Below, piece after piece: positions 14,213 to 64,000 of a DNA stretch of 64,000 nt. The notes beneath the pieces were generated by a model, which ran no database searches, was not told the origin of the DNA, and saw only the letters and a program-made list of their open reading frames with translations. Position numbers and translations under genes: made by a program. The stretch lies in assembly GCA_964396685.1 (NCBI GenBank), contig CAYNFS010000003.1, positions 110 through 64,109 on the forward strand, in the 5' to 3' direction. The DNA comes from an uncultured Candidatus Saccharibacteria bacterium (GTDB lineage Bacteria; Patescibacteriota; Doudnabacteria; UBA920; 2-01-FULL-46-14). The number at the start of each line of letters is the position of its first letter. The stretch's first letter is position 1.

Positions 14213-14518
14213 TGGTTCGCATAAACCAAACTGTCTATTCGCTTTCCCATTTTTTCTTCCTCCATTCCGCCGGGAAGCGATTGCCTCCGGGCTTCAATCT
14301 ACCTACGCACCAAAGGATGGTGCCTCCGTTTCACGGAATTGTGAAAGAACAAAAAACTGACCTTTCAAGAGGCCAGGTGGAGAAGCTTGAGTGGGGAAAC
14401 TAATGACTAATAATCGACAACTGATAACCAAACTTAAGCGCCTGGAAACTGGCCTCTTGGGAGAAGCCGTAGTAATAGGCGCGGACTAGTTGAAATGTTT
14501 TGATTATCATACTTTTCT

Positions 14519-14544
14519 GGATTCCCGCCTTCGCGGGAATGACA
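14519..14544. repeat. hairpin repeat GGATTCCCGCCTTCGCGGGAATGACA (GGAATGAC palindromic repeat family)
   Basis: Inverted repeat TCATTCCCGCG/CGCGGGAATGA. Related copies at 17808, 19081, 31442, 48199 and 52579. A second hairpin CCGCCCCT...AGGGGCGG follows at 14561-14582. Confidence 0.7.
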
Positions 14545-22564: not shown

Positions 22565-22765
22565 TTTATGATATACTGGGGACTACCCCTGGACAACTCC
22601 TTCTTTTTTTCCAATTCAAACCCGTCCTCCACTAATCTTCAACAAACCATCAACACAAAATCTTATTTCCTTTTTTAGAATTCCCCCAATCCCAAGGAGA
22701 ATTTCTCGTTTACAACATTTCCCCACCCTCTACTGTTATTATTAATTTTATTTTTAGAAATAATT

Positions 22766-23860
22766 ATGAAAATAATATGCACCCAAAAAAATTTACACCA
22801 AGGGTTGACCTACACAACAAGAATAATAAATAGCGGGGCGGCCCTGCCTGTTCTAAACAACATTTTGTTTAAAACAGACCAAGGAAGACTGAAAATTTCA
22901 GCAACAAACCTGGAAATTGCCGTAAACACTTGGGTGGGGGGAAAAATTGAAGAAGAGGGCGAGCTAACCATCCCAGCAAAACCTATAAATGAGTACATTG
23001 CAAGCCTTCCAGCAGAAAGAATTGTCATTTCTGCCCAGAACGAAACAATGAAGTTGGCGGGAGAGAATACAGAAACACACATCAAAGGCCTTCCAGCAGA
23101 AGAATTTCCCCTCATTCCCAGAGTGGAGGGAGAAGTATACGGAAAGGTGAATGGAAAAGATTTAAAGTTGGCGATTTCAGAAGTAGCTTACGCCACAGCA
23201 TTCTCAGAGACCCAGCCAGAAATTTCGGGAGTTTTGTTTAGATTTGAAGAGAAGACTTTAACCCTTGCCGCCACCGACCGGTACCGGCTTGCGGAAAAGA
23301 AACTTCCCCTTTCAGGTGAGGGGGTTTCTGCAAGGCAAATAATTATTCCTGCGAGAGCGGTTGGTGAAATTGGAAGAATCATGGGAGAAGGAGAAGTAGA
23401 AATTTTTCTGACAGAAAGTCAGGCGTGTTTTAGAGCCGATGCTATTGAACTTATCACCAGGCTTATCGACGGCCAATACCCAGATTATAAACAGATAGTC
23501 CCCAAAAGTTTCACAACCGAAGTTAAAATAAACCGCCCCAAGTTTGTGCAGTCTCTAAAAGCAACAAGCGTTTTTGCCTCCGACACCAACAACGTGGAGT
23601 TTTTTGTGAACCCGGCAAGCAAGGAGCTCGTCATTAAGTCCCAGTCAAGCCAAATCGGGGATAGCGAAATTCATTTGGGGGTTGAGGGTGAAGGGGAAAA
23701 AAATTCAATCATTTTCAATTATCGCTATCTCCTCGAGTGTTTGAATAATTTGACAGATGAGGAAGTTAATCTTCGTCTCATTTCGCCTTCTTCGCCGGCA
23801 GAAATCATTCCGGCGGGGCGGGAAGATTATCTCTATCTTGTTATGCCGATAAAAATTTAA
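22766..23860 (+). CDS. dnaN: DNA polymerase III beta sliding clamp
   Basis: 364 aa with three-domain clamp architecture, immediately after dnaA. Ends ...DYLYLVMPIKI. Confidence 0.9.
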   Translation: MKIICTQKNLHQGLTYTTRIINSGAALPVLNNILFKTDQGRLKISATNLEIAVNTWVGGKIEEEGELTIPAKPINEYIASLPAERIVISAQNETMKLAGENTETHIKGLPAEEFPLIPRVEGEVYGKVNGKDLKLAISEVAYATAFSETQPEISGVLFRFEEKTLTLAATDRYRLAEKKLPLSGEGVSARQIIIPARAVGEIGRIMGEGEVEIFLTESQACFRADAIELITRLIDGQYPDYKQIVPKSFTTEVKINRPKFVQSLKATSVFASDTNNVEFFVNPASKELVIKSQSSQIGDSEIHLGVEGEGEKNSIIFNYRYLLECLNNLTDEEVNLRLISPSSPAEIIPAGREDYLYLVMPIKI

Positions 23861-24960
23861 TGTTTGTCTCACGGGTTTCTTATGAAAACTTCCGGAATTT
23901 CCCAAGCCTTGATTTGACCCTTGATCAAGGCTTTGTAATTTTGACTGGTGAAAATGGGGCGGGGAAAACTAACTTTTTGGAAGGAATTTATTTTGGAGCA
24001 GGACTGCGACGCTTTCCCGAGAGCAAACTCCCACAACTTGTGAGAGAAGGGGAGGTTTTTAGCAAAATCAAAATTTCTTCCAGGAACAAGGAAGAGCAAA
24101 ATCAGGAATTGGTGGTGGAGAGAAAGGCTCAAGAAGAGGGGGGAATTTTAAAATTAAAAATCAACAGCCAACCAGCGCTCCGGATAAGTTATACGGCTAT
24201 TTTGCCGGTGATAAGCTTCCTCCCTCAAGATTTAAGTCTTCTTACCAGGTCGCCTGGCGGAAGGCGGCGCTTTTTAAATGAAACCTTATCCTCAAGCTTT
24301 CCCGAATATCGCCTAGCCCAAACCCATTACCAGAAAGCGCTTAAACAACGAAACGAGCTTCTTGCGAAAATTCGCAACGGCGATGCCTTGAGAGAAGAGC
24401 TTGAGATTTGGGATGAAAAACTTGCAGAGACAGGCAGCACAATCACCAAATTTCGAGAAGAGTTTTTTAGCTATTGCAACCAACACCTCGCGGAGATAAT
24501 GGAAGAGGTTTCTGCCGATCTTTTGTCAAGCAAGCTTGGTTTTTCCCCTGGCGGGAATTCGGACAGGAACGAGTTTTTGAAGCTGCTTCGAAGCTCCCAG
24601 GTCCAGGATTTGCGTCTGGCAAACACCATGGTCGGGCCGCATCGAGATGATTTTTCGGTTTTTTTGGGGCGCAAAGAAGCGGTCGGATATCTTTCCCGAG
24701 GCCAGATGCGGAGCTTAACTTTGGCCTTGAAAATCTTAGAAAGGAATTATTTTGAAAAACACCGGAAAACAATTCCCATTATGCTTTTCGATGACGTTTT
24801 TTCGGAATTTGACAGTCACCATCAGCGGCGGCTGGCAAGCTTTTTAGCAAACTTTAAGCAGCCATTTTTGACAACAACACACCCCGAAGAGATCAAAGCG
24901 TTTCTGCCTGAAATTGCCCAGATTTTTAATGTTGACAAAGGAAAGGTTAGCAGTGTTTGA
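23860..24960 (+). CDS. recF: DNA replication and repair protein RecF
   Basis: Walker A ILTGENGAGKTNFLEGIYF and a C-terminal Walker B/signature region. dnaA-dnaN-recF synteny. Confidence 0.9.
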   Translation: MFVSRVSYENFRNFPSLDLTLDQGFVILTGENGAGKTNFLEGIYFGAGLRRFPESKLPQLVREGEVFSKIKISSRNKEEQNQELVVERKAQEEGGILKLKINSQPALRISYTAILPVISFLPQDLSLLTRSPGGRRRFLNETLSSSFPEYRLAQTHYQKALKQRNELLAKIRNGDALREELEIWDEKLAETGSTITKFREEFFSYCNQHLAEIMEEVSADLLSSKLGFSPGGNSDRNEFLKLLRSSQVQDLRLANTMVGPHRDDFSVFLGRKEAVGYLSRGQMRSLTLALKILERNYFEKHRKTIPIMLFDDVFSEFDSHHQRRLASFLANFKQPFLTTTHPEEIKAFLPEIAQIFNVDKGKVSSV

Positions 24961-25247: not shown

Positions 25248-26345
25248 CTAAAATATCAAATTTTCAAAACCGGCGAGCATAGATTCTTCGGAAAACCTTT
25301 GGGCTTTCACGGAAGTTTTTTTTCTAAATTCCTCGTAAAAAAGAAGATCTCTCAATTGAATCAAAACAGCTGACCACATTGCCGGCTCATTCGGTTCTAT
25401 TAAGAAGCCGGATTTTTTGTCTTCAATCATTTCTGGCAGCGCCCCGATTTCCGAGCCAACCACAGGTACTCCCCTTGCCGCGGCTTCTAGCACAGCGACA
25501 CCGAACGCCTCCGGGACCTTGGTTGGGTAGACAAAGACCGAGATCTGCAAAAAAAATTCATCCAAATCATTCACAAACCCTAAGAGTTTAATCTGGTTTT
25601 CGAGATGATAATTACTGATTAGGAATTCTATTTTTTGCCTTTCTTCTCCTTCTCCCCCAATTATAATTTTCCAATCGGGGTGGTCTTTGAGAGTGGGCAG
25701 AATTGTTTGGAAAAAATCCAGCACTCCTTTTTCCGGGGCAAGGCGGGAGAGAAGGCCAATAGTAAAAAAGGTTTTAGGTAACAGCTTATGGCTTATCGCA
25801 TCGACGCCAGGATAAATTACTTTGATGGTTTTTTTGAGGATGCCGAGTTTTACAAACTCTTGCATGGCGAAGTTGGAGACGGTGACAAGCTCAATACGTC
25901 TGGCAAGTTTTAGGTAGTGCGATTTTAAGGGATTGAGTTTTAGCCAGCGGCCGGGAATTTTGTGTTCCAGCCAAACTATTTTAGATTTTTGATTTAAGAT
26001 TTCAGATTGAAGAATGAGCGGGGAGAGAATTAGTTTCTCGGTCAAACTTTGCATGAAGAATGTGGCACCAGGGGAAATTTGTTTTACGAGTTTGCGAAAT
26101 TTGTATCCGGCAATCAGGTAGGTAAGCGGCCATAAAAAAAGCGACAATTTGCTGGTTGGTTCCCAGCCAACAAAGAGACGCTGGCGCGGCAATCGGTGTT
26201 TTTCAAAAAGCCGAAAAAGTTTAGCATCCGAGGTTATAAGCTTGACAGCATGTCCCAAACTTTGGAAATGTTTGGCGAGCTTTAATGTGTGAAACTCTGC
26301 TCCGCCCAAAGAATCTTGGAGCGGAAACTTGAAGAAAAAAATCAT
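25248..26345 (-). CDS. glycosyltransferase family 4 (GT-B fold)
   Basis: N-terminal GGAEFHTLKLAKHFQSLGH and the C-terminal EX7E-type region EAFGVAVLEAAARGVPVVGSEIGALPEMI. Confidence 0.8.
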   Translation of the reverse strand: MIFFFKFPLQDSLGGAEFHTLKLAKHFQSLGHAVKLITSDAKLFRLFEKHRLPRQRLFVGWEPTSKLSLFLWPLTYLIAGYKFRKLVKQISPGATFFMQSLTEKLILSPLILQSEILNQKSKIVWLEHKIPGRWLKLNPLKSHYLKLARRIELVTVSNFAMQEFVKLGILKKTIKVIYPGVDAISHKLLPKTFFTIGLLSRLAPEKGVLDFFQTILPTLKDHPDWKIIIGGEGEERQKIEFLISNYHLENQIKLLGFVNDLDEFFLQISVFVYPTKVPEAFGVAVLEAAARGVPVVGSEIGALPEMIEDKKSGFLIEPNEPAMWSAVLIQLRDLLFYEEFRKKTSVKAQRFSEESMLAGFENLIF

Positions 26346-30131: not shown

Positions 30132-30788
30132 ATGCTTAATCTGGCTTTGCCTGACGGCAATCTCGAGAGGAATACTTTGCGGCTTTTGGAGGCCGCGGGT
30201 TTTAGGGTGGAGTTTATGGGGCGAAAATACACGGGCCGGATTCAAGATCCCTGCTTTGCCCACGTGGCGCTGATGCGGCCGCAGATTATGCCGGGACTCA
30301 TAGGAGGAGGAAACTATGATATTGGGATCTGCGGTTCGGACTGGGTTGAAGAAAGCATTACAAAGGCGCGGGTGATTGCGCGGTTCAACTATAATAGCAG
30401 GCAGTTCGGGAACGGGTGGCGGATAGTTTTAGTGGCTGGCGGAACTGATGTGGTCTCGAAGGGTGGGGAAATACCCGACGAGGCTGAGATTTTGAGCGAA
30501 TATCGGTGGATAACCGAGGATTACTTCAACAAAATCCACAAATTCGTGGATGTTAAAGAATCTTTGGGTAAAACCGAAGCGCACATTCCGCATGATTTCC
30601 GGTTTGGAGTCTGTGTTTCTGTAACTGGCGAGACACTCCGGGCCAATAATCTCAAGATCGTGGAAGTTTTGCGAAATGCCAACCCCTTATTGATTGCCTC
30701 GCCTCAAGCGATGCAAGACAAAAAGAAGAACGCCATGCTTGAAAGCGTCGCCGTGGCTCTCACTGAAGCACTCGCTTCTTTGCGCTGA
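30132..30788 (+). CDS. hisG: ATP phosphoribosyltransferase, short form
   Basis: MLNLALPDGNLERNTLRLLEAAGF and YDIGICGSDWVEE match the HisG N-terminal and substrate-binding motifs. 218 aa, which fits the short form. The track ORF at 29631 extends spuriously into ruvB. Confidence 0.7.
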   Translation: MLNLALPDGNLERNTLRLLEAAGFRVEFMGRKYTGRIQDPCFAHVALMRPQIMPGLIGGGNYDIGICGSDWVEESITKARVIARFNYNSRQFGNGWRIVLVAGGTDVVSKGGEIPDEAEILSEYRWITEDYFNKIHKFVDVKESLGKTEAHIPHDFRFGVCVSVTGETLRANNLKIVEVLRNANPLLIASPQAMQDKKKNAMLESVAVALTEALASLR

Positions 30789-30806
30789 CAGACCGCAAAT
30801 AGTCTG
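30781..30806. repeat. 26-nt hairpin motif GCGCTGACAGACCGCAAATAGTCTGT, copy 1, overlapping the hisG stop
   Basis: ACAGAC/GTCTGT inverted repeat. Identical or near-identical copies at 31274-31298 and 33027-33052, and a degenerate copy at 33487-33507. Confidence 0.75.
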
Positions 30807-30813
30807 TTTGTTT

Positions 30814-31002
30814 TTATTTCGGTTCTTCAATGCCCAAATCCCGACAAATTTTTCTGGCAAGAAAATCATTAATTTCTTTGTGCCGGGGGACCGTCGAAGT
30901 GCGTTTTAGTACGGGATTGAAAAAGACAGAATGCCTTGCGCCCTCTCTAATAAAAACACACCCTCTTTTCCGAAGGTGGCGGATTAGGCCGCTGTGTTTC
31001 AT
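30814..31002 (-). CDS. hicA: HicA-family toxin (YcfA-like mRNA interferase)
   Basis: 62 aa, MKHSGLIRHLRKRGCVFIREGARHSVFFNP...VPRHKEI fits the HicA fold pattern (KxxEliklL...G...GSH). Confidence 0.7.
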   Translation of the reverse strand: MKHSGLIRHLRKRGCVFIREGARHSVFFNPVLKRTSTVPRHKEINDFLARKICRDLGIEEPK

Positions 31003-31441: not shown

Positions 31442-31511
31442 GTCATTCCGGGCTTGATCCGGAATCCAGATTTTGGCTTATTTACTGGATTCCCGCTTTC
31501 GCGGGAATGAC
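31442..31511. repeat. two hairpin repeats (GTCATTCCGGGCTTGATCCGGAATC ... CTGGATTCCCGCTTTCGCGGGAATGAC)
   Basis: Same GGAATGAC palindromic family as 14519 and 17808. Confidence 0.7.
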
Positions 31512-32453: not shown

Positions 32454-33047
32454 ATGCCTGGATTCATAGTAAAGGCGATTATTTTGCTGGCACTGCCTTA
32501 TCTATTGGACGCCCAAGACCTGCAGAACCGCTCGACTCTGCATTTAATAGCGGACATTACCGACCGGTGGTACGTGGCCCTCTGGCCGATTGCCAACATT
32601 AGAGCGCAGTCACCCAGCAACTTCAACATTTTTGCTGGCGCAGGACGCCGCGGTAAGAATTGGTATCTGGAAGCCATGGCCCAGAAGCAGTGGAACGGCA
32701 AAGGCGGGTTGTGGACGCTAGACTTCCGCTATCGCAGGCAAGTTACCGGTCGCCTTTCGGTTTATGCCGAACCAGACGTTTTCCTTAGCCGGCGCGCGTT
32801 TTACGAGTTTATAATAGTGGAGTATCGCTCATGGCGGAAATTTAACTTGGGCGGTGAAACTGAAAACGTTCACCAGCTCGGTAAAGACGTTCTGGCGGCA
32901 GGGCCGCGGATCAGCCGCCCGCTTGGCAGGCTCTGGGGAACCGACTTTGCGCTCGGATTGGCCTATAGGACAGCTTCACCGGGGCACAATGAAATCAGGA
33001 TTTACCTGAACGCCACCAAGCGTTTTGCGCTGACAGACCGCAAATAG
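32454..33047 (+). CDS. secreted hypothetical protein (signal peptide)
   Basis: MPGFIVKAIILLALPYLLDAQDL signal-peptide-like N-terminus, Trp/Arg-rich, GC-rich. Start set at the ATG after RBS AAAGGAGG (the track used TTG at 32448). Ends inside copy 3 of the 26-nt motif. Confidence 0.4.
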   Translation: MPGFIVKAIILLALPYLLDAQDLQNRSTLHLIADITDRWYVALWPIANIRAQSPSNFNIFAGAGRRGKNWYLEAMAQKQWNGKGGLWTLDFRYRRQVTGRLSVYAEPDVFLSRRAFYEFIIVEYRSWRKFNLGGETENVHQLGKDVLAAGPRISRPLGRLWGTDFALGLAYRTASPGHNEIRIYLNATKRFALTDRK

Positions 33048-33052
33048 TCTGT
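33027..33052. repeat. 26-nt hairpin motif copy 3 (GCGCTGACAGACCGCAAATAGTCTGT)
   Basis: Identical to copy 1. The stop codon of the 32454-33047 gene lies inside it, in a different frame from the hisG case. Confidence 0.75.
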
Positions 33053-33079
33053 CTATTCTGTTTTCGACTGGAGGAAGAA

Positions 33080-33548: not shown

Positions 33549-33683
33549 TTATCCGCCTCCGCTCCTGCGACCACGGGCTTGATCGGTGGATGAAGGGCGG
33601 TACGGATAAAGCACGTGAGGGCAAAACATCGTCTGGCTTCGGCGGATGCAGCAGCGAGATTCTAGGCGGATAAATAAGGGCGG
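33549..33683 (+). repeat. conserved structured element of about 135 nt, copy A (TTATCCGCCTCC ... GGCGGATAAA)
   Basis: About 75% identical to 51935-52066. The 5' TTATCCGCC can pair with the 3' GGCGGATAA. Shared internal blocks GTGGATGAAGG, TAAAGCACGT and GCTTCGGCGGATG(C/T)AGCA, with compensatory changes in the hairpin regions. Confidence 0.6.
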
Positions 33684-37028: not shown

Positions 37029-38174
37029 ATGATTAATGGAATAGAAAAGCAAATTTTTGAAGCGGTTAATAAAGCCAACCGAGTGCTGGTGGTTTTGCCT
37101 GCTAATCCGAATGGAGATGCTTTGGGCTCGGGCTTGGCTTTTTTTGATTTTTTAAGAAAACTCGACAAACAGCCGGAGATCATCTGTGCGGCCGCCGATC
37201 TTGCGGCTTTTAATTTTTTGCCGAAACTCAAGGAAATAAAGAGAGAATTGGAGGTTTCACAAAGTTTCGTGATTTCCTTACAGACGGAAAATGCAAAGCT
37301 TGACGAGCTGTCTTACGAAGTCAAGCCCGACCGGGTGGATATTTTTGTCAAACCCAAAAGCGGCAAATTTACTACTCAAGACGTCTCTTTCAAGAGTGCC
37401 AAATTTCCCTATGACCTGATCGTAACTTTGGACTGCCCGAGCCTAGAGCATTTGGGGGAGATTTACGAAAAAAACACTGACCTGTTTTTTGAGACGGCAG
37501 TGATTAATATCGACCACCATCCTTCAAATGAACATTACGGGGAGATAAACCACGTTGATTTGGCGGCCACCTCCACGGCTGAAATTTTAACGATCTTGAT
37601 CCAAGACTATGAGGCTTCTTTGATTGATGAAAATATTGCCACTAATTTGCTAACCGGTATTATTGTCGAGACGAATAGTTTCCAGCATATCAAGACCACG
37701 CCTCAAGCGTTTCTTATGGCCTCTAATCTGATAGCCCAAGGCGGCAAACATCAGGAAATCATCCGGCAGATTTACAAAACCAAGCACATCCCTCTTTTGA
37801 AGTTATGGGGAAGGGCCTTGGCCAGGCTTAAAGAAATCCCGGATCTTAAGCTTGCTTATTCTTTGGTAAACTTCACAGACCTGGAGAAGTCAGGAAGCAC
37901 CACCCCGGACGTTTTAGGTGTCATGAGAGAGCTTGTAGCAAACCTGGTCGGACACAAAATTATTTTGCTTTTGGCCGAAGTCTCCCCCCAAAAGGTTGTC
38001 GGCTATTTGCATTTTCATCCCAGCGTCAAATCCCAAGTTGTAATTTCTGCGCTTTCTGGCCAAATGCTAAACGGTTCTTTAGGAACCTTCCACGTAGCAG
38101 GACGAGGGGTTTTGGAGATTGAGAAAGATGTGTTGGAACAACTTGCCAAAATCAAAGAACAAATTATTGTTTAA
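37029..38174 (+). CDS. DHH-DHHA1 phosphoesterase (NrnA-like oligoribonuclease / pAp phosphatase)
   Basis: DHH motif region VVLPANPNGDALGSGLAF and INIDHHPSNE, with a C-terminal DHHA1. Confidence 0.8.
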   Translation: MINGIEKQIFEAVNKANRVLVVLPANPNGDALGSGLAFFDFLRKLDKQPEIICAAADLAAFNFLPKLKEIKRELEVSQSFVISLQTENAKLDELSYEVKPDRVDIFVKPKSGKFTTQDVSFKSAKFPYDLIVTLDCPSLEHLGEIYEKNTDLFFETAVINIDHHPSNEHYGEINHVDLAATSTAEILTILIQDYEASLIDENIATNLLTGIIVETNSFQHIKTTPQAFLMASNLIAQGGKHQEIIRQIYKTKHIPLLKLWGRALARLKEIPDLKLAYSLVNFTDLEKSGSTTPDVLGVMRELVANLVGHKIILLLAEVSPQKVVGYLHFHPSVKSQVVISALSGQMLNGSLGTFHVAGRGVLEIEKDVLEQLAKIKEQIIV

Positions 38175-42197: not shown

Positions 42198-44156
42198 ATG
42201 ATTGGGACAGAAAAGCTGCAAAAGTTAGCAAAGCTTATCCGCTATTTTATTTTAACTTCAACCACTGAAGCAGGTTCGGGGCACCCGACTTCGTCGCTGT
42301 CTGCGGTTGAATTGATGGCGGCCCTGCTTTTTGGCGGGTTTTTTCGTTTTGATTTGGACAATCCAGCGCACCCAAACAATGATCGGTTGATTTTCAGCAA
42401 AGGCCACGCTTCGCCGCTTTTTTATTCTTTATGGGCCGCTGCCGGCAGGGTTTCCGAGCAAGAGCTTTTGACCTTTCGGAAATTTGGGAGCCCTTTGGAA
42501 GGGCATCCCACGCCAGCTTTTGTATACACAGAGGCCGCCACTGGCTCACTTGGCCAAGGCTTATCAATTGGCGCAGGAATGGCGCTCAACGCCAAGCTTG
42601 ATAATTTGGCTTATAGAACTTTTGTATTGTTAGGAGATAGTGAAATGGCCGAGGGTTCTGTGTGGGAGGCCGTGCAAATCGCGGCGCATTATAAACTTAA
42701 TAATTTAATCGGGATTTTGGATGTGAATCGTTTGGGGCAAAGGGGCGAGACTATGTATGGACACGACATAAAGGCCTATGAGAAAAGGATTAAGTCTTTC
42801 GGATGGGAGACGATCGTAATAGAGGACGGGCATAATTTTCGCCAAATTTTAGAGGCCTTTCAATTTCTAATTTCTAATGACGAATTTTTAAACAAATCCC
42901 AAGTCCCAAATTCCAAACCAGTTATGGTTATAGCGAAAACAATCAAGGGCAAGGGCGTATCGTTTCTTGAGAATAAAGACGGGTGGCATGGGAAAGCGTT
43001 GCCCGCCGAAGATCTACCAAAGGCGTTAGCAGAGCTGGGAGAGATTGATAAAGGCACTCGCGGGGAAGTGGGCAAACCTGAATCGGCGGGAATTTCTAAA
43101 TCCAAATTTCTAATTTCTAAACAAGCACCAAAATACCAAATACCAAATACTAAATACGATCCCGGTAAACCCGTGGCGACGAGGAGGGCTTATGGGAATG
43201 CATTGGTCAATATCGCCGAGGTTTTCCCAAATCTTGTGGTGCTGGACGGCGAGGTTTCCAATTCGACCTATGCCGAGATTTTCAAAAAAGCTTATCCCGA
43301 GCGGTTTTTTGAGATGTTTATCGCCGAGCAGAATATGGTCGGCGTGGCGCTTGGGCTTTCGCGCCGTGGGAAAATTCCTTTTGTTTCAAGCTTCGCCGCG
43401 TTTCTCACGCGGGCTTTTGATCAAATTAGGATGTCGCAATATAGTGAGGCCAACCTCCACCCTGTTAAATCCGCCGAAGGCGGGGCTGCTTTGCAGCCAT
43501 TTAACGGGGTAAAGTTCTGCGGATCTCATGCTGGCGTTTCAATCGGCGAGGACGGGGCAAGCCAAATGGGGCTTGAGGATATTGCGATGTTTCGGACTAT
43601 ATTAAGCAGTATTATTTTGTATCCTTCGGACGCTGTTTCTTGCGAGAGACTGGTGGAGGAGGCGGCAAAACACAAAGGAATGGTTTATATTAGAACAACG
43701 CGCAAAGACACCTCGATTATTTACGAACCCAGTGAAGAATTTAAGATCGGCGGCTCAAAAATACTTAGACAATCAACCCACGATCGTGGGACAGTTGTCG
43801 CGGCGGGAATTACTTTGCATGAGGCACTCGCGGCGTACGAAGAACTTAAAAAAGAAGGAATCAATATCCGGGTGGTTGATTTATATAGTGTGAAGCCCTT
43901 GGATGTTGAAACGTTGCGGAAAGCGGCGGAAGAGACAAAGGCAATTATCACCGTTGAGGATCATTATTCAGAGGGTGGCATTGGCGAGGCAGTGGATACC
44001 GTTTTGGCACAAATACTAAATACTAAATACAAAATACTAAACTTGGCTGTTCGCAAAATGCCACGCTCCGGAAAGCCCGAGGAACTTTTGAGATATGAGG
44101 AAATAGACAGAAGTGCTATTATTAAGGCAGTAAAAGATTTAATCAGTAATAAGTGA
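42198..44156 (+). CDS. tkt: transketolase carrying in-frame low-complexity insertions
   Basis: TPP-binding GSLGQGLSIGAGMALNAKL and LLGDSEMAEGSVWEA. Insertions at FQFLISNDEFLNKSQVPNSKP, GISKSKFLISKQAPKYQIPNTKY and ILNTKYKILN are encoded by tandem DNA repeats. Confidence 0.9.
   Translation: MIGTEKLQKLAKLIRYFILTSTTEAGSGHPTSSLSAVELMAALLFGGFFRFDLDNPAHPNNDRLIFSKGHASPLFYSLWAAAGRVSEQELLTFRKFGSPLEGHPTPAFVYTEAATGSLGQGLSIGAGMALNAKLDNLAYRTFVLLGDSEMAEGSVWEAVQIAAHYKLNNLIGILDVNRLGQRGETMYGHDIKAYEKRIKSFGWETIVIEDGHNFRQILEAFQFLISNDEFLNKSQVPNSKPVMVIAKTIKGKGVSFLENKDGWHGKALPAEDLPKALAELGEIDKGTRGEVGKPESAGISKSKFLISKQAPKYQIPNTKYDPGKPVATRRAYGNALVNIAEVFPNLVVLDGEVSNSTYAEIFKKAYPERFFEMFIAEQNMVGVALGLSRRGKIPFVSSFAAFLTRAFDQIRMSQYSEANLHPVKSAEGGAALQPFNGVKFCGSHAGVSIGEDGASQMGLEDIAMFRTILSSIILYPSDAVSCERLVEEAAKHKGMVYIRTTRKDTSIIYEPSEEFKIGGSKILRQSTHDRGTVVAAGITLHEALAAYEELKKEGINIRVVDLYSVKPLDVETLRKAAEETKAIITVEDHYSEGGIGEAVDTVLAQILNTKYKILNLAVRKMPRSGKPEELLRYEEIDRSAIIKAVKDLISNK
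42861..42925. repeat. tandem AATTTCT and CAAATCCCAA-type repeats inside tkt
   Basis: TTTCAATTTCTAATTTCTAATGACGAATTTTTAAACAAATCCCAAGTCCCAAATTCCAAACC. Confidence 0.6.
43091..43157. repeat. tandem repeats (AATTTCTA x3, then CAAATAC/TAAATAC heptamer x4) inside tkt, frame preserved
   Basis: AATTTCTAAATCCAAATTTCTAATTTCTAAACAAGCACCAAAATACCAAATACCAAATACTAAATACGAT. Confidence 0.7.
44011..44045. repeat. heptamer tandem repeat (C/T)AAATAC x5 inside tkt
   Basis: CAAATACTAAATACTAAATACAAAATACTAAAC. The same unit occurs at 43125-43151. Confidence 0.7.
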
Positions 44157-44601: not shown

Positions 44602-45555
44602 ATGGACCGAAATTTAGCTCTCGAATTTGTCCGGGTTACAGAAGCGGCCGCGATTGCGGCCGCTAAATGGGTTGGCCGGGGGGACAAGCACGCGGCCGAC
44701 CAAGCGGCGGTGGATGAGATGCGCGCGCGGTTTAACCAAATTGATTTTGCGGGAACGGTTGTGATAGGCGAGGGCAAGAAAGACGAAGCGCCTGAACTTT
44801 ATACGGGTGAAAAAGTCGGTGCGGGCAAAGCCCCGGAAATGGATTTGGCTGTGGATCCGCTGGAAGCAACAGATAGCGTAGCGCACGGCCGTCCCAATGC
44901 CATCTCGGTCATTGCGGCAGGCGCCAAGGGAAGCTTGCTTTCCGCCCCCGATACCTATATGGATAAGCTTGCAGTGGGCCCGAAGGCGAGAAATGCAATT
45001 GATTTAGATGCGCCAGTAGCAGACAATATCCAGAAGACGGCAGAGGCTCTAGGCAAAGAGGTTTCCGAGATTACAGTCATGGTTTTGGACCGGGAGAGGC
45101 ACCAGAAACTTATGAAAGAAATAAGGGCAGTAGGTGCCCGGGTTCGCACAATTACTGATGGCGACGTGGCAGGGGCGATTGCTCCCTCGTTTCCTGATTC
45201 GGGAATCGACATGCTGATGGGTATTGGCGCTTCCACCGAGGGAGTTTTGGCGGCGGTTGCTGTCAAAATTTTGGGCGGGGAACTGTTTTGTCGGTTCAAA
45301 CCAAAAAAACCGGAAGACGAAGAAGCGATTAAGGCAAGCGGAATCAAAGACATCAATCAAATTTTGTCAGCCGAGGACTTAGCCCATGGCAAAACTTTGA
45401 CCTTCACCGCCACCGGAGTAATTGACGGCCCGCTTTTGGAGGGAGTTAGATTTACCAACCGTCACATCATCACTCATTCGGTTGTTATGCGGGCTTTATC
45501 TGGTACAATTAGATACATTACTACGCATCATCATCAGACAAGTAGCAAGTTGTAA
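44602..45555 (+). CDS. glpX: fructose-1,6-bisphosphatase class II (GlpX)
   Basis: LALEFVRVTEAAAIAAAKWVGRGDKHAADQAAVDEMR and downstream metal-binding regions are characteristic of GlpX. Confidence 0.85.
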   Translation: MDRNLALEFVRVTEAAAIAAAKWVGRGDKHAADQAAVDEMRARFNQIDFAGTVVIGEGKKDEAPELYTGEKVGAGKAPEMDLAVDPLEATDSVAHGRPNAISVIAAGAKGSLLSAPDTYMDKLAVGPKARNAIDLDAPVADNIQKTAEALGKEVSEITVMVLDRERHQKLMKEIRAVGARVRTITDGDVAGAIAPSFPDSGIDMLMGIGASTEGVLAAVAVKILGGELFCRFKPKKPEDEEAIKASGIKDINQILSAEDLAHGKTLTFTATGVIDGPLLEGVRFTNRHIITHSVVMRALSGTIRYITTHHHQTSSKL

Positions 45556-45588
45556 GTAGTAAGCAATAAGTTAGGTGGGGAGAAAGTT

Positions 45589-48244: not shown

Positions 48245-48257
48245 TAGACTATCTGAT

Positions 48258-48362
48258 GAGGCCGACAAACTTGAAAACCAGAATTTTTTTGGATTCCGGC
48301 GATCCTGACGAGACCCGGGAGGCTTTGGGCTTGCTTGGATTTCTTGACGGGCAGACGACCAA
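48258..48362 (+). pseudogene. duplicated 5' fragment of the transaldolase gene (about 85% identical to 48870-48975)
   Basis: ATGAGGCCGACAAACTTGAAAACCAGAATTTTTTTGGATTCCGGCGATCCTGACGAGACCCGGGAGGCTTTGGGCTTGCTTGGATTTCTTGACGGGCAGACGACCAATC aligns with the genuine tal start. The reading frame hits a stop shortly after the duplicated part. Confidence 0.6.
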
Positions 48363-48417
48363 TCTTCTATTTTCGTTATGCTTTGCTTCAAATCTAAAAT
48401 TTTGCTAACATGTAAAT

Positions 48418-48663
48418 ATGCTAACTGAATTTGTTATTAAAAAATTAAAAATCGCCAAGTACAAGCTTCTTAAGGACAAAACTTATTTTGGTGAAATTCC
48501 TGGTCTACAAGGAGTGTGGGCAAACGCACGAAATTTGGAAGACTGCAGAAAACAGCTCCGGGAAGTGCTGGAGGAGTGGGTACTGCTTCGGATTCGGGAT
48601 CGTCAAAGCGTGCCCGGATTGTATATTCATGCCAATCGCCGCCAAATAGTGAAGCATGCCTAA
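48418..48663 (+). CDS. hicB: HicB-like antitoxin
   Basis: 81 aa, TYFGEIPGLQGVWANARNLEDCRKQLREVLEEWV fits the HicB N-domain. Overlaps hicA by 8 nt. Confidence 0.55.
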   Translation: MLTEFVIKKLKIAKYKLLKDKTYFGEIPGLQGVWANARNLEDCRKQLREVLEEWVLLRIRDRQSVPGLYIHANRRQIVKHA

Positions 48664-48868
48664 AAGTATTTCTTGGAGAAAGTTAGTGCAAAAGTTTAGG
48701 CGTTTGGGTTTTGACGGACCGTATTCTGGCGGCCGTCATTTGTTTATGATTAAGGGAACCTTAAAGCTTCACATCCCGAATCCGCATCGCGGCAATATTT
48801 CTAAACACCTCCTTGCAGAGATTTTGAGACAAGCCGGTATTCCTTCTGCGGACTGGGAACAAGCGTAA
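48656..48868 (+). CDS. hicA: HicA-family toxin
   Basis: 70 aa, WRKLVQKFRRLGFDGPYSGGRHLFMIKG...IPNPHRGNISKHLLAEILRQAGI is the HicA/YcfA pattern. Confidence 0.7.
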   Translation: MPKSISWRKLVQKFRRLGFDGPYSGGRHLFMIKGTLKLHIPNPHRGNISKHLLAEILRQAGIPSADWEQA

Positions 48869-48869
48869 T

Positions 48870-49799
48870 ATGAGACCAGCAAATCTCAAAACCAGAATTT
48901 TTCTTGATTCAGGCGATCCTGACGAGACCCGGGAGGCTTTGGGCTTGCTTGGATTTTTTGACGGGCAGACGACCAATCCGAGCTTGATTGCCAAAAATCC
49001 GGAAACGGCCGGGAAGAAATTTACTCGCGAGGAGATTTTGGATTTTTACAAAAAAGTCGTGCAAGAGATTTCGGGTTTGATTCCCGAAGGCTCGGTTTCG
49101 ATAGAGGTTTATGCGGATTTCTCGACACCCGGCCTTCCTACCCCCTCTTCATCTCCCCCATCGCATGGGGGAGAAAAAAGATTGTCCATGCTCGAACAGG
49201 CGAGGGGGATGTTTCATTGGATTCCGAATGGTCATATCAAATTTCCAACCACGACAGAAGGGCTTAAGGCGGCAGAGCAAGCGGTCAAGGAAGGCATGGG
49301 AGTCAACATGACTCTGTGTTTTTCGCAGGAACAGGCGGCCGCGGTTTATGCTGCAACCAGAGGGGCCCAGAGAGGGCAAGTTTTTGTCTCGCCATTTGTG
49401 GGGAGGCTGGATGACCGAGGCGAGCGGGGGATGGATTTGATCGCGAATATTATTAAGATGTATAAACAGGGAGACGGACATGTGGAGGTGCTCACGGCGA
49501 GTGTGAGGAACATTGAGCATGTTTTGGAAGCGCTGCGATTAGGGTCGGATATTATTACGATGCCATTGGGGGTGCTCGAAAACTCCAAATCACAAATAAC
49601 AAATCCCAAACAAATCCCAAATTTTCCGCCCAAGGCGGATCCACCCCTGGCGGACAAATTCCAAATTCAAAACTTGAAGCCAATAGATTATAAAGAGCTT
49701 GATTTAGATAAATCCTGGCAGGAGTATGATATCGGGCATGAGCTGACGGACATCGGAATGGAGAAGTTTTCCGAGGATTGGAACCGATTAATAAAGTGA
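48870..49799 (+). CDS. tal: transaldolase / fructose-6-phosphate aldolase family, with in-frame insertions
   Basis: IFLDSGDPDETREALGLLGFFDGQTTNPSLIAKN and FVSPFVGRLDD (Schiff-base Lys region). At 309 aa it is about 90 aa longer than typical short-form Tal/FSA. Insert sequences PTPSSSPPSHGGEKRLS and SKSQITNPKQIPNFPPKADPP. Confidence 0.85.
   Translation: MRPANLKTRIFLDSGDPDETREALGLLGFFDGQTTNPSLIAKNPETAGKKFTREEILDFYKKVVQEISGLIPEGSVSIEVYADFSTPGLPTPSSSPPSHGGEKRLSMLEQARGMFHWIPNGHIKFPTTTEGLKAAEQAVKEGMGVNMTLCFSQEQAAAVYAATRGAQRGQVFVSPFVGRLDDRGERGMDLIANIIKMYKQGDGHVEVLTASVRNIEHVLEALRLGSDIITMPLGVLENSKSQITNPKQIPNFPPKADPPLADKFQIQNLKPIDYKELDLDKSWQEYDIGHELTDIGMEKFSEDWNRLIK
49150..49172. repeat. palindromic element TCTCCCCCATCGCATGGGGGAGA inside tal
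   Basis: CTCCCCC/GGGGGAG inverted repeat, in frame. Sister of 18774-18798. Confidence 0.6.
49581..49668. repeat. CAAAT-rich tandem repeats and a CCGCC...GGCGG hairpin inside tal
   Basis: CACAAATAACAAATCCCAAACAAATCCCAAATTTTCCGCCCAAGGCGGATCC...CCAAATTCCAAATTCAAAAC. Same CAAATCCCAA unit as in tkt at 42892. Confidence 0.6.
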
Positions 49800-49831: not shown

Positions 49832-50188
49832 ATGCTAATAAAAACGTTTCGTGATTTGATTGCCTGGCAGAAAGCTCATAATCTTACTCTAGGAGTCTAT
49901 AAAATAACTGATAAATTTCCCAAAACCGAGACATTTGGTTTAACTAGTCAGATGCGTCGTTGCGCTGTTTCTGTGCCTTCTAATATCGCAGAGGGGTTTA
50001 AGCGAAGAACAAAAAATGATTCGGTTCATTTCTACAACATTGCCGAGGGAGCATTAGAAGAATTAAAGTATCAATTGCTGCTTGCGAGAGACCTAGGCTA
50101 TATTTCAGATAAAGAATATCGCTCGTTGAATGATTTAGCCGATGAAGTAGGCAAACTCACCAACGGTTGGAAGCGGGTACAAAAATAA
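49832..50188 (+). CDS. avd: four-helix-bundle protein of the 23S-rRNA-intervening-sequence / Avd family (DGR accessory variability determinant-like)
   Basis: 118 aa, WQKAHNLTLGVYKITDKFPKTETFGLTSQMRRCAVSVPSNIAEGFKRRT...FYNIAEGALEEL, the TIGR02436/PF05635 pattern to which DGR Avd proteins belong. Confidence 0.7.
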   Translation: MLIKTFRDLIAWQKAHNLTLGVYKITDKFPKTETFGLTSQMRRCAVSVPSNIAEGFKRRTKNDSVHFYNIAEGALEELKYQLLLARDLGYISDKEYRSLNDLADEVGKLTNGWKRVQK

Positions 50189-51939: not shown

Positions 51940-52160
51940 CCGCCTCCGCCGAATACCACGGGGTTACCCGTGGATGAAGGCGGAAGGCGTAAAGCACGTA
52001 AGCTAAAGCATAAGTCAAGCTTCGGCGGATGTAGCAACGACAGCCCAGGCGGATAAACCCGCCTTAGCTTTAGGGAAGGCGGGTATGGAGGGTACCACGG
52101 CTTCCCGGCCGTCGTAGCCATAGGCCACTATGGCGGAGTCGGCTAGCCGTGGGGCTCCAT
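51940..52160 (+). mobile_element. 221-nt insertion splitting RT motif 4 from motif 5. Contains copy B of the conserved structured element (core 51935-52066)
   Basis: Removing 51940-52160 joins ...SQIFANIY to LNELDQFV..., the contiguous DGR-RT consensus. The insertion starts TTATCCGCCTCC and contains GGCGGATAAA, like copy A at 33549-33683. Confidence 0.6.
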
Positions 52161-52578
52161 TTGAATGAATTAGACCAGTTTGTAAAACACCAGCTTCGAG
52201 TAAAATATTACTTTCGCCATGCTGATGATTTTGTTATAGTTCATAGTGACGACACTCATTTGCAGGGCCCAACCTGCTCAATTCAGAGGTTTTTGAAAGA
52301 CGATCTTGATCTGGGGCTGCATCCTAAAAAAATCGTCATCAGAAGACTCCACCAAGGCATAGATTTTTTGGGTTATGTTATTTTACCTCATCATATCGTA
52401 TTGAGGACGAAAACCAAAAGAAGAACATTTAGAAAACTTTTTGAAAAAAGAGGAATGCTCGAAAGGGATAAGATAAGTTTTGAGAGTTATAATCAATCAA
52501 TACAGTCTTATTTGGGCATGTTGGAGCATTCAAATGGATATAATTTGAGTAATATAATTCAGAATAATTTTTCAGGAG

Positions 52579-52606
52579 CTGGATTCCCGCTTCCACGGGA
52601 ATGACA
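52579..52606. repeat. hairpin repeat CTGGATTCCCGCTTCCACGGGAATGACA at the RT 3' end
   Basis: GGAATGAC palindromic family. Supplies the terminal codons (GFPLPRE) and the stop of the RT ORF. Confidence 0.6.
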
Positions 52607-52618
52607 GGATTAATTATT

Positions 52619-53575
52619 ATGATGCGCGATGCGATTCTGAATTTTCCAAAACAATTTAAATACCGGCCCAAGATCGAGAATGGGCCGGTGAAGAAGTATA
52701 AGCGCTATGTAGTGGCTGGCATGGGCGGCTCGCATCTGGCGGCGGATATTTTGAAAAGTCTTAAGCCGGATTTGGATCTGACAGTGCATATGGACTACGG
52801 ATTGCCGGAAAAAGATTTGCAAAAAACCCTTGTAATCGCGAGTTCCTATTCGGGCAATACCGAAGAAACGATTGACGCTTTTGAGCAGGCAAGAAACAAG
52901 GGCTCGGCGTTGGCGGCGGTTGCTTCCGGAGGGAAGCTCATTGAGTTAGCCGTTCAGCACAAGGTGCCCTATATCCTGTTGCCGCAGGCAGTAAGCGAGC
53001 CGCGCATGGCTTTGGGTTTGAGCCTTAGAGCTCTTCTTAAACTTACCAAGCAGAACGAGTTTTTGAAGGAGTCGGCTCTGCTTATCAAAATTTTAAAGCC
53101 GCAAGAACTTGAGCTTCAAGGCCGGGCGCTGGCGGAAAAGATAAAAGGCAAGGTGCCGGTTATTTATGCTTCCGCGCGCAACGAGGCCGTTGCTTACAAT
53201 TGGAAAATCAAATTCAACGAGACCGGGAAAATTCCAGCTTTCTGCAACGTCCTGCCCGAGCTCAATCACAATGAAATAAATGGATTCGATATTAAGGAGG
53301 CGACTAAATCTTTGGGCACTTGGGCCCACTTTATTTTCCTCAAAGATTCTGAAGATCACCCCAGAAACCAGAAGCGAATGGAGATTACCGCCAAACTTTA
53401 TCAGGAGCGCGGGCTGCCGGTAGAAGTTATCGAGCTTTCCGGAGACTCAAGACTTGAACAAATTTTCAAATCCCTCCTGCTAGCGGACTGGACAGCCATA
53501 TATACAGCACAAAATTACGGGCTCAAACCCGAAGGCCAGCCCATGGTGGATGAGTTTAAGAAGCTAATTATCTAG
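52619..53575 (+). CDS. bifunctional phosphoglucose/phosphomannose isomerase (SIS-domain PGI/PMI family)
   Basis: YVVAGMGGSHLAADIL, LVIASSYSGNTEET and a C-terminal region typical of archaeal-type PGI/PMI. Confidence 0.75.
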   Translation: MMRDAILNFPKQFKYRPKIENGPVKKYKRYVVAGMGGSHLAADILKSLKPDLDLTVHMDYGLPEKDLQKTLVIASSYSGNTEETIDAFEQARNKGSALAAVASGGKLIELAVQHKVPYILLPQAVSEPRMALGLSLRALLKLTKQNEFLKESALLIKILKPQELELQGRALAEKIKGKVPVIYASARNEAVAYNWKIKFNETGKIPAFCNVLPELNHNEINGFDIKEATKSLGTWAHFIFLKDSEDHPRNQKRMEITAKLYQERGLPVEVIELSGDSRLEQIFKSLLLADWTAIYTAQNYGLKPEGQPMVDEFKKLII

Positions 53576-53608
53576 GAGTAAGCTGTAAGTATTAAGCAAT
53601 AAGTTTAG

Positions 53609-63134: not shown

Positions 63135-64000
63135 TTATTTTAACGATCTGATTTTGCCTGCAAGCTTTTCAGCGCGCAGTTTGGTTGTTTGGTAATCAGT
63201 TTTTAGTTTTTCCACGACCTCGGCAGGCGCTTTTTTGAGAAAATCTTTTTTTTCAAGCTGGGCAGAGAGTCGTTCAATTAGCCCGCTTGTTTCCTTGAGC
63301 TCTTTTTCGGTAAGAGCTTTTTCTTTCTTGGGATCAAAATCGGGAATGACGAGATAAACTTTTGTATCTTGCCAAATGAAATAGGGCATTTTCTTGTCTG
63401 ACGGCATGGAAGCAAAATTGATTTTCACGCGGGCAAGTTTTTCGATAACGGCTGCTTGGTCTTGAATCCAGGAGAGATTTTTGGAAAGTTCCAGATAGCA
63501 GGCGTAAATTTGGGCCGGATCCTGGCGGTATTCCGAGCGCAGGTTGCGCAAGCCCGTGATCAGGGATTGGAGTTTGGGAAAGCCAGCTTGTAGTTTGTAG
63601 TTTGCAGTTTGCAGTTTTGGGGGAAGGGGATATTCCTGAATCATTAAAAAGTCATCTGAAATTTGCAACCAGATATGCTCTGTCACAAACGGGATAAAAG
63701 GGTGCCAGAGTTTAAGCAATGTTTGCAAGATGTGTTGAAGGATTGCCCGAGTGGCGGTTGGGTCCCCGCCTCCGCGGGGATGCCGATTAAGCGCCATTTT
63801 TGATATTTCCAGATACCAGTCTGCGAGTTCGTGCCAGGTGAATTCGTAGAGGTTCTCCACGCTTTGCGAAAATTCGTATTTTTCCATGTTAACGTTGTTT
63901 TGTTTTATGAGTTCGGCAAGTCTTGAAAGGATCCATTCATCAGCCACGGTTTTGGATTTCAGGTCCTTAATCTGCGATCTCGAATCTTTAATCTGTTCTA
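63135..64000 (-). CDS. valS: valyl-tRNA synthetase, C-terminal part (anticodon-binding + coiled coil); the N-terminus lies beyond the window end
   Basis: ...LLKLWHPFIPFVTEHIWLQI... and the terminal coiled coil KLKTDYQTTKLRAEKLAGKIRSLK. The ORF stays open to position 64000. Contains an in-frame heptamer repeat at 63585-63630. Confidence 0.75.
   Translation of the reverse strand, partial: EQIKDSRSQIKDLKSKTVADEWILSRLAELIKQNNVNMEKYEFSQSVENLYEFTWHELADWYLEISKMALNRHPRGGGDPTATRAILQHILQTLLKLWHPFIPFVTEHIWLQISDDFLMIQEYPLPPKLQTANYKLQAGFPKLQSLITGLRNLRSEYRQDPAQIYACYLELSKNLSWIQDQAAVIEKLARVKINFASMPSDKKMPYFIWQDTKVYLVIPDFDPKKEKALTEKELKETSGLIERLSAQLEKKDFLKKAPAEVVEKLKTDYQTTKLRAEKLAGKIRSLK
63585..63630. repeat. 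heptamer tandem repeat (TGTAGTT/TGCAGTT x4) inside valS
   Basis: CTTGTAGTTTGTAGTTTGCAGTTTGCAGTTTTGG, translated on the minus strand as KLQTANYKLQAG. Confidence 0.65.

Follow-up and report, generated by a model that had tools for sequence, protein, structure and literature searches.

In-frame heptanucleotide tandem repeats in tkt, tal and valS of a Patescibacteria genome

A stretch of DNA of 64,000 nucleotides (nt) from an uncultured groundwater bacterium (contig CAYNFS010000003.1, positions 110 to 64,109; hereafter the window) contains short arrays of tandem 7-nt units that lie in frame within the genes for transketolase (tkt), transaldolase (tal) and valyl-tRNA synthetase (valS). These arrays are probably heptanucleotide long simple-sequence repeats (LSSRs) within coding sequence that are made and turned over by slippage and filtered by reading frame and protein fold. 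A protein identical to the transketolase (Tkt) of the window is encoded on contig JACQJJ010000008.1 of GCA_016205105.1, a metagenome-assembled genome (MAG) of Candidatus Doudnabacteria belonging to the CPR (candidate phyla radiation)/Patescibacteria.

Heptanucleotide arrays in the window

Arrays were detected with Tandem Repeats Finder (TRF) and with an independent autocorrelation scan of periods, results of which were compared with dinucleotide-preserving shuffles. In the period scan of the window, 12 period-7 arrays scored 8 or more (1.6 expected), nine scored 9 or more (0.4 expected) and six scored 10 or more (0.1 expected), whereas periods 5, 6 and 8–13 were far nearer expectation. Period 14, a multiple of 7, mirrored the period-7 arrays (10 as opposed to 1.3 expected). 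The window thus contains head-to-tail tandem units beyond chance that are specific to a unit length of 7, as is characteristic of heptanucleotide LSSRs. All of the arrays that had been named in tkt, tal and valS in an earlier sequence-only reading of the window were recovered by TRF, far beyond chance, and the reading frame was, as claimed in that reading, unbroken through all inserts. In-frame arrays were noted at three sites in tkt and in tal, valS, a glycosyltransferase (GT1) gene and a DHH-family gene (Table 1).

On the coding strand, almost all arrays were composed of one unit family, N-A-A-(A/T)-T-N-C, with the variants CAAATCC, CAAATAC, TAAATAC, TAATTTC and GAAATCT, and CAAACTR in valS. 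Two in-phase AAWTNC units occurred 13 times on the plus strand and not once on the minus strand (2.1 expected for both strands together). Read on the coding strand of their own genes, the minus-strand arrays of valS and the GT1 gene were likewise A-rich and G-poor. Because these arrays keep the coding-strand sense and the genes lie on both sides of the dnaA origin, array orientation tracks the gene and not the replication strand. Units on the coding strand were nearly free of G and encoded hydrophilic peptides in which Q, I, P, N, K, S and T are frequent.

The heptamer stretches were without RNA structure (minimum free energy of 0 to -3.5 kcal/mol, z of about 0), and the four runs of three or more G on one strand that define a potential G-quadruplex were not found, the complements of the units being GTATTTG, GGATTTG and AGAAATT with at most two GGG runs (at 42893-42917). 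Roles of the arrays in G-quadruplex or RNA structure were ruled out by these sequences and fold energies, and no Rfam family covered the arrays or the G+C-rich hairpins described below.

Table 1. Positions in the window of genes, heptamer arrays and hairpin inserts, with copies of the site-3 hairpin family in other genomes (bp, base pairs; aa, amino acids)
Feature	Position	Strand	Encoded residues	Basis and remarks
tkt, human-type transketolase	42198..44156	+	652 aa	Open reading frame (ORF), translation, Pfam domains; typical orthologues ~610 aa
tkt site 1, left array, (C/T)AATTTC, ~3 units	42858..42878	+	FQFLISN	TRF (TTTCTAA x3.1), own scan
tkt site 1, right array, CAAATCC x3.6	42893..42917	+	KSQVPNSK	TRF; absent from non-CPR orthologues and human TKT
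tkt site 2, left array, AATTTCT x4.3	43091..43120	+	ISKSKFLIS	TRF
tkt site 2, right array, AAATAC(C/T) x3.9, after junction AAACAAGCACC; in TRF, AAATACC x3.9 at 43131-43157	43127..43157	+	PKYQIPNTKY	TRF
tkt site 3, 57-nt G+C-rich insert, LHPVKSAEGGAALQPFNGV	43455..43511	+	net +18 aa	Alignment gaps; not a heptamer array
tkt site 4, AAATACT x4.4	44011..44041	+	QILNTKYKILN	TRF score 55
tal, transaldolase (TAL_FSA family)	48870..49799	+	309 aa	
tal, G+C-rich hairpin insert, PTPSSSPPSHGGEK	49136..49177	+		Inverted repeat; reverse-complement copy at 18772-18813; fold z = -2.4
tal array, CAAATCA CAAATAA CAAATCC CAAA CAAATCC	49585..49622	+	SKSQITNPKQIPN	TRF (CCAAATC x5.9, AACAAATCCCA x2.2)
tal, 30-nt G+C hairpin inside array	49626..49655	+	PPKADPPLAD	Exactly 10-codon gap against L004; fold z = -2.6
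tal array, right part, CAAATTC x2.5	49655..49672	+	KFQIQN	Own scan
valS, 3' part	63135-63998	-		Pfam Anticodon_1 and Val_tRNA-synt_C
valS array, coding strand CAAACTG x2 and CAAACTA x2	63584..63617	-	PKLQTANYKLQ	TRF (CAGTTTG x4.9)
valS, G+C hairpin in frame	63754..63784	-	HPRGGGDPTA	Dispersed GGATTCCCGC...GCGGGAATG family; translation
GT1 glycosyltransferase gene	25248-26345	-		Pfam
GT1 gene array, coding strand AAATCTN	25978..26013	-		TRF, scan, Pfam
DHH-family gene, short array-like stretch, CAAATCCCAAGTTGTAATTTC	38027..38047	+	VKSQVVIS	Repeat family shared with tkt arrays
Site-3 hairpin family, further copies	L003 tkt, same site; L004 16118-16166 (pgi); L112 5074-5120			

Inserts in transketolase, transaldolase and valyl-tRNA synthetase

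The Tkt sequence was aligned with 15 homologues and with human TKT, its best match in the Protein Data Bank (PDB; E = 1e-173) and thus its best solved relative. Four altered sites were evident, of which sites 1, 2 and 4 were heptameric and site 3 was not. The non-CPR orthologues of about 610 residues lacked all four alterations, and the inserts were also missing from human TKT. Site 1 (FQFLISNDEFLNKSQVPNS) contributed about 12-13 extra residues and site 2 (GISKSKFLISKQAPKYQIPNTKY) was a rebuilt inter-domain linker between the PP and Pyr domains, while the loop at site 4 was only about three residues longer than in typical orthologues. The earlier count of three tkt inserts was therefore right about the presence of the arrays but not about the number or nature of the sites, the linker being rebuilt, the site 4 loop barely lengthened and the hairpin at site 3 having gone unmentioned. 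At site 3, an 11-bp outer stem (43460-43470 with 43499-43509) enclosed two small hairpins, with an RNA fold of -32.2 kcal/mol (z = -5.1).

In an AlphaFold2 (AF2) model of Tkt, which had a mean predicted local distance difference test score (pLDDT) of 71.9, the inserted residues were coil. Values of pLDDT below 50 were noted for residues 229-237 (site 1, right array), residues 300-311 (linker) and the whole region 398-471. The model was only moderate, and placement in loops rests mainly on alignment gaps. Compared with Thermus transaldolase, Tal contained about 24 extra residues around the G+C-rich hairpin at 49136-49177 and about 48 extra residues between residues 236 and 288, the first 35 of which were encoded by heptamers and the nested hairpin; the insert at 49136-49177 was also missing from PDB transaldolases and from the tal of L004, a related genome described below. 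These comparisons place the inserts of tkt and tal either in loops, as had been put forward in the sequence-only reading, or in the linker between domains.

A degenerate array in the same 7-nt register (AGATTAA AGATTCG AGATCGC AGATTAA on the coding strand) was noted in valS at 63966-63993 on the minus strand, just before the ADEWILSRL motif of valyl-tRNA synthetase (ValRS). In a valS fragment from Thermodesulfovibrionales (L005, 176-232), a clear (AAATCCG)n array, KSEIRNPKSETNPKSKIPNSK, was present at the corresponding loop, which suggests recurrent use of the same ValRS loop across phyla.

Arrays in related genomes

Five tkt orthologues were compared with that of the window in codon-level alignments; these were from genomes designated L002 (syntenic, 79% amino acid identity), L004 (74%), L003 (68%), L125 and L126. 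Homologous arrays occupied the same tkt sites in these MAGs and encoded partly the same peptides, i.e., AGIS[KN]SKFLISKQ and NKSQI.NP in L002, L004 and L125. Because relatives carry arrays at the same sites, the arrays are inherited within the clade and are not recent insertions into the genome of the window. An ancestral origin of the insert peptides, which the sequence-only reading had proposed to recognise by their presence in orthologues from unrelated bacteria, was thus half supported, since MAGs with 68-79% Tkt identity shared the arrays and some of the peptides whereas distant orthologues were without them. A protein-guided scan found no near-identical strain, the closest relative being 69-79% identical.

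The Tkt linker was laid out alike in all five genomes, with an AAACAA(A/G) junction that separates a left from a right array and a conserved Tyr codon after the latter, and the first 42 nt or so of this element (GGAATTTCT...TCTAAACAA) were approximately 90% identical between the window and L125. Units at a given site had nevertheless been exchanged. At site 1, the left array was CAATTTC TAATTTC TAATGAC in the window as opposed to CAAATCC TAAATCC TAAATCC in L002, with the same two substitutions in units 1 and 2 and further differences in unit 3. At site 2, the right array was AAATAC(C/T) in the window, as at its own site 4, as opposed to AAATCCN in the orthologues of L002 and L004. At site 4, the window, L002, L003 and L004 were all different. 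Such concerted evolution is typical of turnover of array units by gain, loss and homogenisation; it shows that units were turned over in the course of evolution and lends indirect support to the earlier suggestion of mutational hotspots. The tal array was identical at 39 of 42 nt to an array at the same site in L004, and at precisely the position of this array the tal of L125 contained one lone CAAATACC (MQIPD), which would be in line with an origin in place.

Synonymous conservation was measured as the number of identical codons among aligned identical residues, in inserts and in flanking sequence, together with nucleotide identity. At tkt site 2, 14 of 16 codons in the insert and 184 of 439 in the flanks were identical between L002 and L004 (Fisher p = 4e-4; nucleotide identity 91% vs 67%). 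Corresponding values for the tal insert of the window compared with L004 were 15 of 20 and 82 of 179 (Fisher p = 0.017; 81% vs 69%). For tkt site 1 of the window compared with L002, they were 10 of 10 and 242 of 465 (79% vs 74%), and for the site 3 hairpin compared with L003, 14 of 15 and 172 of 406 (Fisher p = 7e-5; 89% vs 64%).

Hairpin inserts

Two kinds of repeat-derived insert are present in tkt, tal and valS, namely unstructured heptamer arrays and structured hairpins that resemble repetitive extragenic palindromic (REP) sequences. The site 3 hairpin belongs to a family found in CPR-like genomes, with the arrangement CCCTGTTAAAT, two small G+C hairpins and ATTTAACRGGG, which occurs in frame in tkt and pgi. 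The inner stems of the copies varied yet stayed paired, whereas the outer stem and the GTAAA tail were conserved. Because the hairpin is present in tkt of the window and of the distant L003 but absent from the closer L002 and L004, two losses, or two gains at precisely the same position, are needed to account for its distribution.

Hairpins rich in G+C were also found nested in heptamer arrays, i.e., 30 nt in the tal of the window (absent from L004), 36 nt at site 1 of the L002 tkt (absent from the window) and in L026. The notion that arrays are general landing pads for such hairpins was dropped, however, as these occurred near 10.8% of arrays compared with 9.4% for random positions (p = 0.63; 120 arrays from many phyla).

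A separate palindromic repeat, CTGGATTCCCGC(N4-5)GCGGGAATGAC, was noted in five copies in the window (14513-14543, 17807-17834 in reverse complement, 31481-31511, 52575-52605 and 63754-63784). Some copies were intergenic and others were in frame, namely in an O-antigen-ligase-like gene (17602-18969), in valS and at the 3' end of the ORF at 52149-52604, just upstream of pgi.

Distribution of heptamer arrays

A scan of species-representative genomes for AAATNCNAAATNCNAAATNCNAAAT matched at least 120 contigs, compared with an estimate of roughly four expected for random sequence, although breadth in a scan selected on the unit family cannot show that this family is special. Among the matches listed were Acidobacteriota, Chloroflexota, Nostocales, Verrucomicrobiota, Planctomycetota, Bacteroidota, Patescibacteria and others. 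The matches listed included arrays in frame in long ORFs, long intergenic hairpins with arms formed by an array and its complement, and one such hairpin within a 16S rRNA gene. In a Tkt-like gene from Saccharibacteria, heptamers, a G+C hairpin and further heptamers followed one another in frame. The 16S rRNA case (L047, 1-448; Saccharibacteria MAG contig CAZPZY010000055.1) was a hairpin of about 170 nt inside the 5' domain, with arms consisting of (AAATYCN)n and its complement, and the 448 nt spanned Rfam model positions 1-271.

A preference for unit length 7 was also evident outside the sequences that the scan had selected. In 832 kb of matched loci, excluding the seeded matches, 122 period-7 arrays were found compared with 24 or fewer at any other period, and 90 of the 122 had different units, among them the CAACAGT type known from cyanobacteria. 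In a repeat-blind sample of 77 Tkt orthologues, collected solely on the basis of protein similarity and comprising 143 kb of coding sequence, six period-7 arrays were counted as opposed to one or none at periods 6, 8, 10 and 11, so that 7 was the commonest non-triplet period. Five of the six lay in the same inter-domain linker and were composed of the unrelated units AGCCGTC, AACCTAC, AATATCA, ACAAGTG and ACAAGAT; the sixth was in a loop where L002 has (CGAATCA)x4. Because unrelated units recur in the same Tkt linker, the special feature would be the 7-nt register and not the unit, and heptamer arrays have arisen repeatedly and independently in tolerant parts of Tkt.

Coding arrays were not shorter than intergenic ones (medians of 32 and 31 nt, respectively), the tail of 39 nt or more being almost wholly intergenic. 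The word AAGCAC, picked by eye as a landmark flanking the arrays, was not among the words enriched beside them. A search with synthetic (CAAATCC)n peptides was uninformative with respect to in-frame inserts, as the matches were "hypothetical proteins" of 40-75 residues from ORFs that run across long intergenic arrays.

Origin and maintenance of the arrays

The findings in the window and in related genomes are best accommodated if strand slippage with a 7-nt register amplified a short seed (e.g., CAAATCC) where it stood, and if the same slippage later added, removed and homogenised units. For an array to survive, the whole insert would need to be a multiple of 3, no stop codon could arise in any reading phase, which would cap TAATTTC runs at fewer than three units, and the encoded peptide would have to fall where it is tolerated, in a surface loop or a linker between domains. 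The expected outcome would be that tkt, tal and valS carry loops that are translated as passengers, are probably neutral and are passed on within this CPR clade while continuing to evolve as DNA repeats. From the pattern as a whole we infer that the arrays are generated by slippage, that the inserts are neutral and that frameshift mutation is a risk at these positions.

Several features of the units bear on these constraints. As 7 and 3 are coprime, a unit comes to be translated in each of the three phases. Units that contain TAA (TAATTTC and AATTTCT) broke off before three full copies; CAAATCC, CAAATAC and CAATTTC are free of stop codons in any phase and encode peptides of the QIPNPKS, QIPNTKY and QFPISNF types, respectively. 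Selection against hydrophobic peptides of the GFGIWDL type, which would be encoded by the opposite strand, can explain the strict sense orientation of the arrays. Since a change of one unit shifts the frame, arrays can persist only with differences of 21 nt or with compensating indels, and the irregular units of 8 and 11 nt and the indels of 6-17% that TRF reported for several arrays would fit a history of compensated frame shifts. The repetition is at the level of DNA, as had been claimed from the sequence alone, because selection on protein sequence cannot maintain a 7-nt register.

Some observations weigh against simple neutral slippage as a full account. Synonymous sites of unswitched arrays were more conserved than those of the flanking gene, which such slippage does not obviously predict, and self-purification of the arrays as a reason for this conservation is ad hoc. 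One unit family and the AAACAA junction recur in all arrays of the window and its close relatives, which hints at a common origin or at a sequence-specific process, and among landmark k-mers beside arrays in other phyla, AAACAA-type words alone were enriched (2.3-2.5x). In addition, tkt by itself holds five of the 12 arrays in 64 kb, so that tolerance of loops may not fully account for their location. There was also no direct evidence of copy-number polymorphism, an exact-anchor scan of metagenome contigs for length variants of site 2 having come back empty.

The conservation, the shared unit family and junction and the concentration in tkt leave room for the view that the arrays are instead parts of a dispersed selfish or mobile composite element (array, AAACAA junction, array), analogous to Rickettsia palindromic elements (RPEs), that inserts into genes, rRNA and intergenic DNA, spreads at times between lineages and serves as a nest for G+C hairpins. 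This alternative, which we regard as unlikely, is favoured by the composite architecture common to tkt sites 1 and 2, by the junction shared among the five orthologues and by nucleotide identity of the inserts above that of their host genes. It is also favoured by the presence of the unit family in frame in the Thermodesulfovibrionales valS fragment and the Saccharibacteria Tkt-like gene, in long hairpins and in a 16S rRNA gene, and by the hairpins nested in arrays of the window tal, the L002 tkt and L026. However, the arrays showed neither terminal inverted repeats nor target-site duplications, and no transposase was seen in association with them. An inverted-repeat scan and direct reading revealed no inverted repeats flanking the arrays, such as those of miniature inverted-repeat transposable elements, and arrays around spacers were in direct orientation. 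A shared unit family and junction were seen, but no defined ends, and in other lineages the same Tkt linker holds arrays of unrelated units. Genomes that carry the arrays also contain heptamers of many other unit types, the association with hairpins was not significant across phyla, the enrichment of AAACAA was modest and the scan of the genome collection had asked for the unit family in the first place. Mobility, which is implied by the earlier suggestion that a simple-sequence element had been inserted into these genes, is the less likely reading, and the unrelated units at the same linker favour origin in place.

Synonymous conservation above that of the flanks, together with the strict coding-strand orientation, the near-absence of G and the retention of arrays at the same sites in several lineages, might also point to a function, either of flexible or interaction-prone peptide linkers or of unstructured, G-poor and CA-rich mRNA or DNA that is bound by a factor or tunes translation. 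We think this improbable, as peptides at the same site differ between orthologues (at site 4 in all four genomes), selection on protein sequence cannot hold a 7-nt period, the stretches have neither an Rfam match nor structure and the orientation is equally explained by selection against GFGIWDL-type peptides. There is a similarly small chance that the arrays, instead of being passive products of slippage, record an active process working in a 7-nt register, one that makes or propagates repeats of the N-AA-W-T-Y-C family and, in many phyla, colonises intergenic hairpins, helices of rRNA and loops of proteins. Were this so, the units would be held at the nucleotide level, hence the excess synonymous conservation, and the process would provide CPR bacteria with new linkers and loops, i.e., with expansion-segment DNA for proteins. 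Chance low complexity or an assembly artefact, which might be considered for arrays of 3-4.4 units in a metagenome-assembled genome, is effectively refuted by the 8- to 60-fold excess over shuffles, confined to periods 7 and 14, by homologous arrays in at least four independent assemblies and by reading frames that are kept throughout.

Relation to known repeats

The RPEs, to which PMC10969869 refers and which were reportedly described by Ogata et al. in 2000 as dispersed palindromic elements of 100-150 bp, resemble the inserts of the window in that repeat DNA of a non-coding type lies in frame in essential genes, at surface positions, and encodes passenger peptides. A location in frame at structurally tolerant positions was indeed indicated for the window inserts by the alignments and the AF2 model. 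In contrast with RPEs, the heptamer arrays are short, unstructured and tandem, and only the G+C hairpins in tkt, tal and valS resemble RPEs or REP sequences. The palindromic character of RPE-like elements was lacking in the heptamer stretches and was found only at 43455-43511, 49136-49177 and 49626-49655.

A closer parallel is provided by the heptanucleotide repeats that, in the accounts of Mrazek et al. (2007) given in PMC4679880 and PMC4692102, are the most abundant class of long simple-sequence repeats in many bacteria and for which a 7-nt polymerase footprint was proposed. As described in these accounts, heptanucleotide LSSRs share with the arrays of the window an excess at 7 nt, typically 3-5 units, sporadic occurrence among lineages and a proposed origin by slippage. 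According to the same accounts, coding repeats in published LSSR surveys are mostly multiples of three and heptamers are mostly intergenic, whereas in the window nearly all arrays are in frame within genes, several of which have housekeeping functions, and individual genes hold several arrays. The GGGAATC repeats of Xanthomonas and the GGGGA(T/C)T repeats of Nostoc are likewise dispersed, are similar in composition to the complements of the window units (GGATTTG, GGGATTT and GTATTTG) and vary in length and sequence between related genomes, as do the window arrays (PMC4692102). They are, however, mostly intergenic, near ORF ends and G-quadruplex-forming, in contrast with the coding arrays of the window, the complements of which lack four G3 runs (PMC4692102). 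In Geobacter metallireducens, 49 elements with four GGACCGG heptamers occur within and between genes, a genome-wide family of about four units (PMC2700814), and the TAACTGA repeats of Beggiatoaceae comprise about four tandem heptamers, the orientation and length of which are limited by stop codons, as for TAATTTC in the window (PMC4679880). The elements of Geobacter and Beggiatoaceae have other units and were interpreted as regulatory, with no orthologue comparison or mapping to protein loops reported (PMC2700814, PMC4679880).

The arrays of the window differ from known systems in that they are almost wholly coding, that several occur per single-copy housekeeping gene, that relatives within CPR share them at orthologous sites and that nested hairpins coexist with them. 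The arrays are an unusual gene-internal case of a known bacterial simple-sequence repeat and involve no new mechanism. The top matches of a literature search included nothing that joined heptanucleotide repeats with CPR/Patescibacteria, which is weak evidence of novelty and not proof of it.

Intragenic repeats with non-triplet units are normally seen as phase-variation switches or as strongly counter-selected. Here, such repeats persist across lineages in single-copy genes for central metabolism and translation of a CPR bacterium with a small genome, providing a natural system in which to ask how much frameshift-prone sequence can be borne by essential genes. They would imply that repeat dynamics at the DNA level, and not protein selection, can create and remodel protein loops and linkers, which may partly explain why CPR proteins often exceed their orthologues in length and contain odd low-complexity segments. 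In practical terms, alignments and structure predictions suffer from such inserts, and the longer intergenic arrays are called as spurious small ORFs.

Other repeats and genes in the window

A bAvd/23S-rRNA-intervening-sequence protein (23S-IVP) family gene lies directly downstream of tal (49832-50188), and a gene of the same family follows glpX in L003. A diversity-generating retroelement tied to the gene in the window was set aside, as the pattern is one of unit repetition and not of adenine-specific mutagenesis, and neither a reverse transcriptase nor a template repeat was seen in the parts inspected near this gene. The first 109 nt of tal (48870-48978, i.e., ATG and about 36 codons) are duplicated 614 nt upstream at 48256-48364 with 91% identity, and a hicB/hicA-like toxin-antitoxin pair (48418-48868) occupies the space between the two copies. 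It looks as if this cassette was inserted in the 5' end of tal, duplicating that end.

The genes dnaA, dnaN and recF lie together at 21182-24960, where a cumulative GC skew minimum (change near 20-24 kb) and a switch in gene orientation were also noted. Because these genes sit at the skew minimum, the chromosomal replication origin is probably inside the window. An A-rich direct repeat of 16 nt occurs at 22769-22799, in the 5' end of dnaN just past the dnaA-dnaN spacer.

A second heptamer family, AAGTAGC AAGTTGT AAGTAGT AAGCAAT, was present in two copies that were 88% identical (45539-45572 and 53574-53605). These overlap or directly follow the stop codons of glpX and pgi, each stop codon lying 33 nt ahead of the point where the following gene starts, and the unit contains stop codons in several phases, like the Beggiatoaceae TAACTGA repeats upstream of start codons. 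Two further dispersed repeats of 43-44 nt, each in two copies with 82-88% identity (30779-30821 and 33024-33066; 33631-33674 and 52014-52057), were located mostly at gene ends or in intergenic DNA, the copy at 33024-33066 overlapping the last 24 nt of an ORF.

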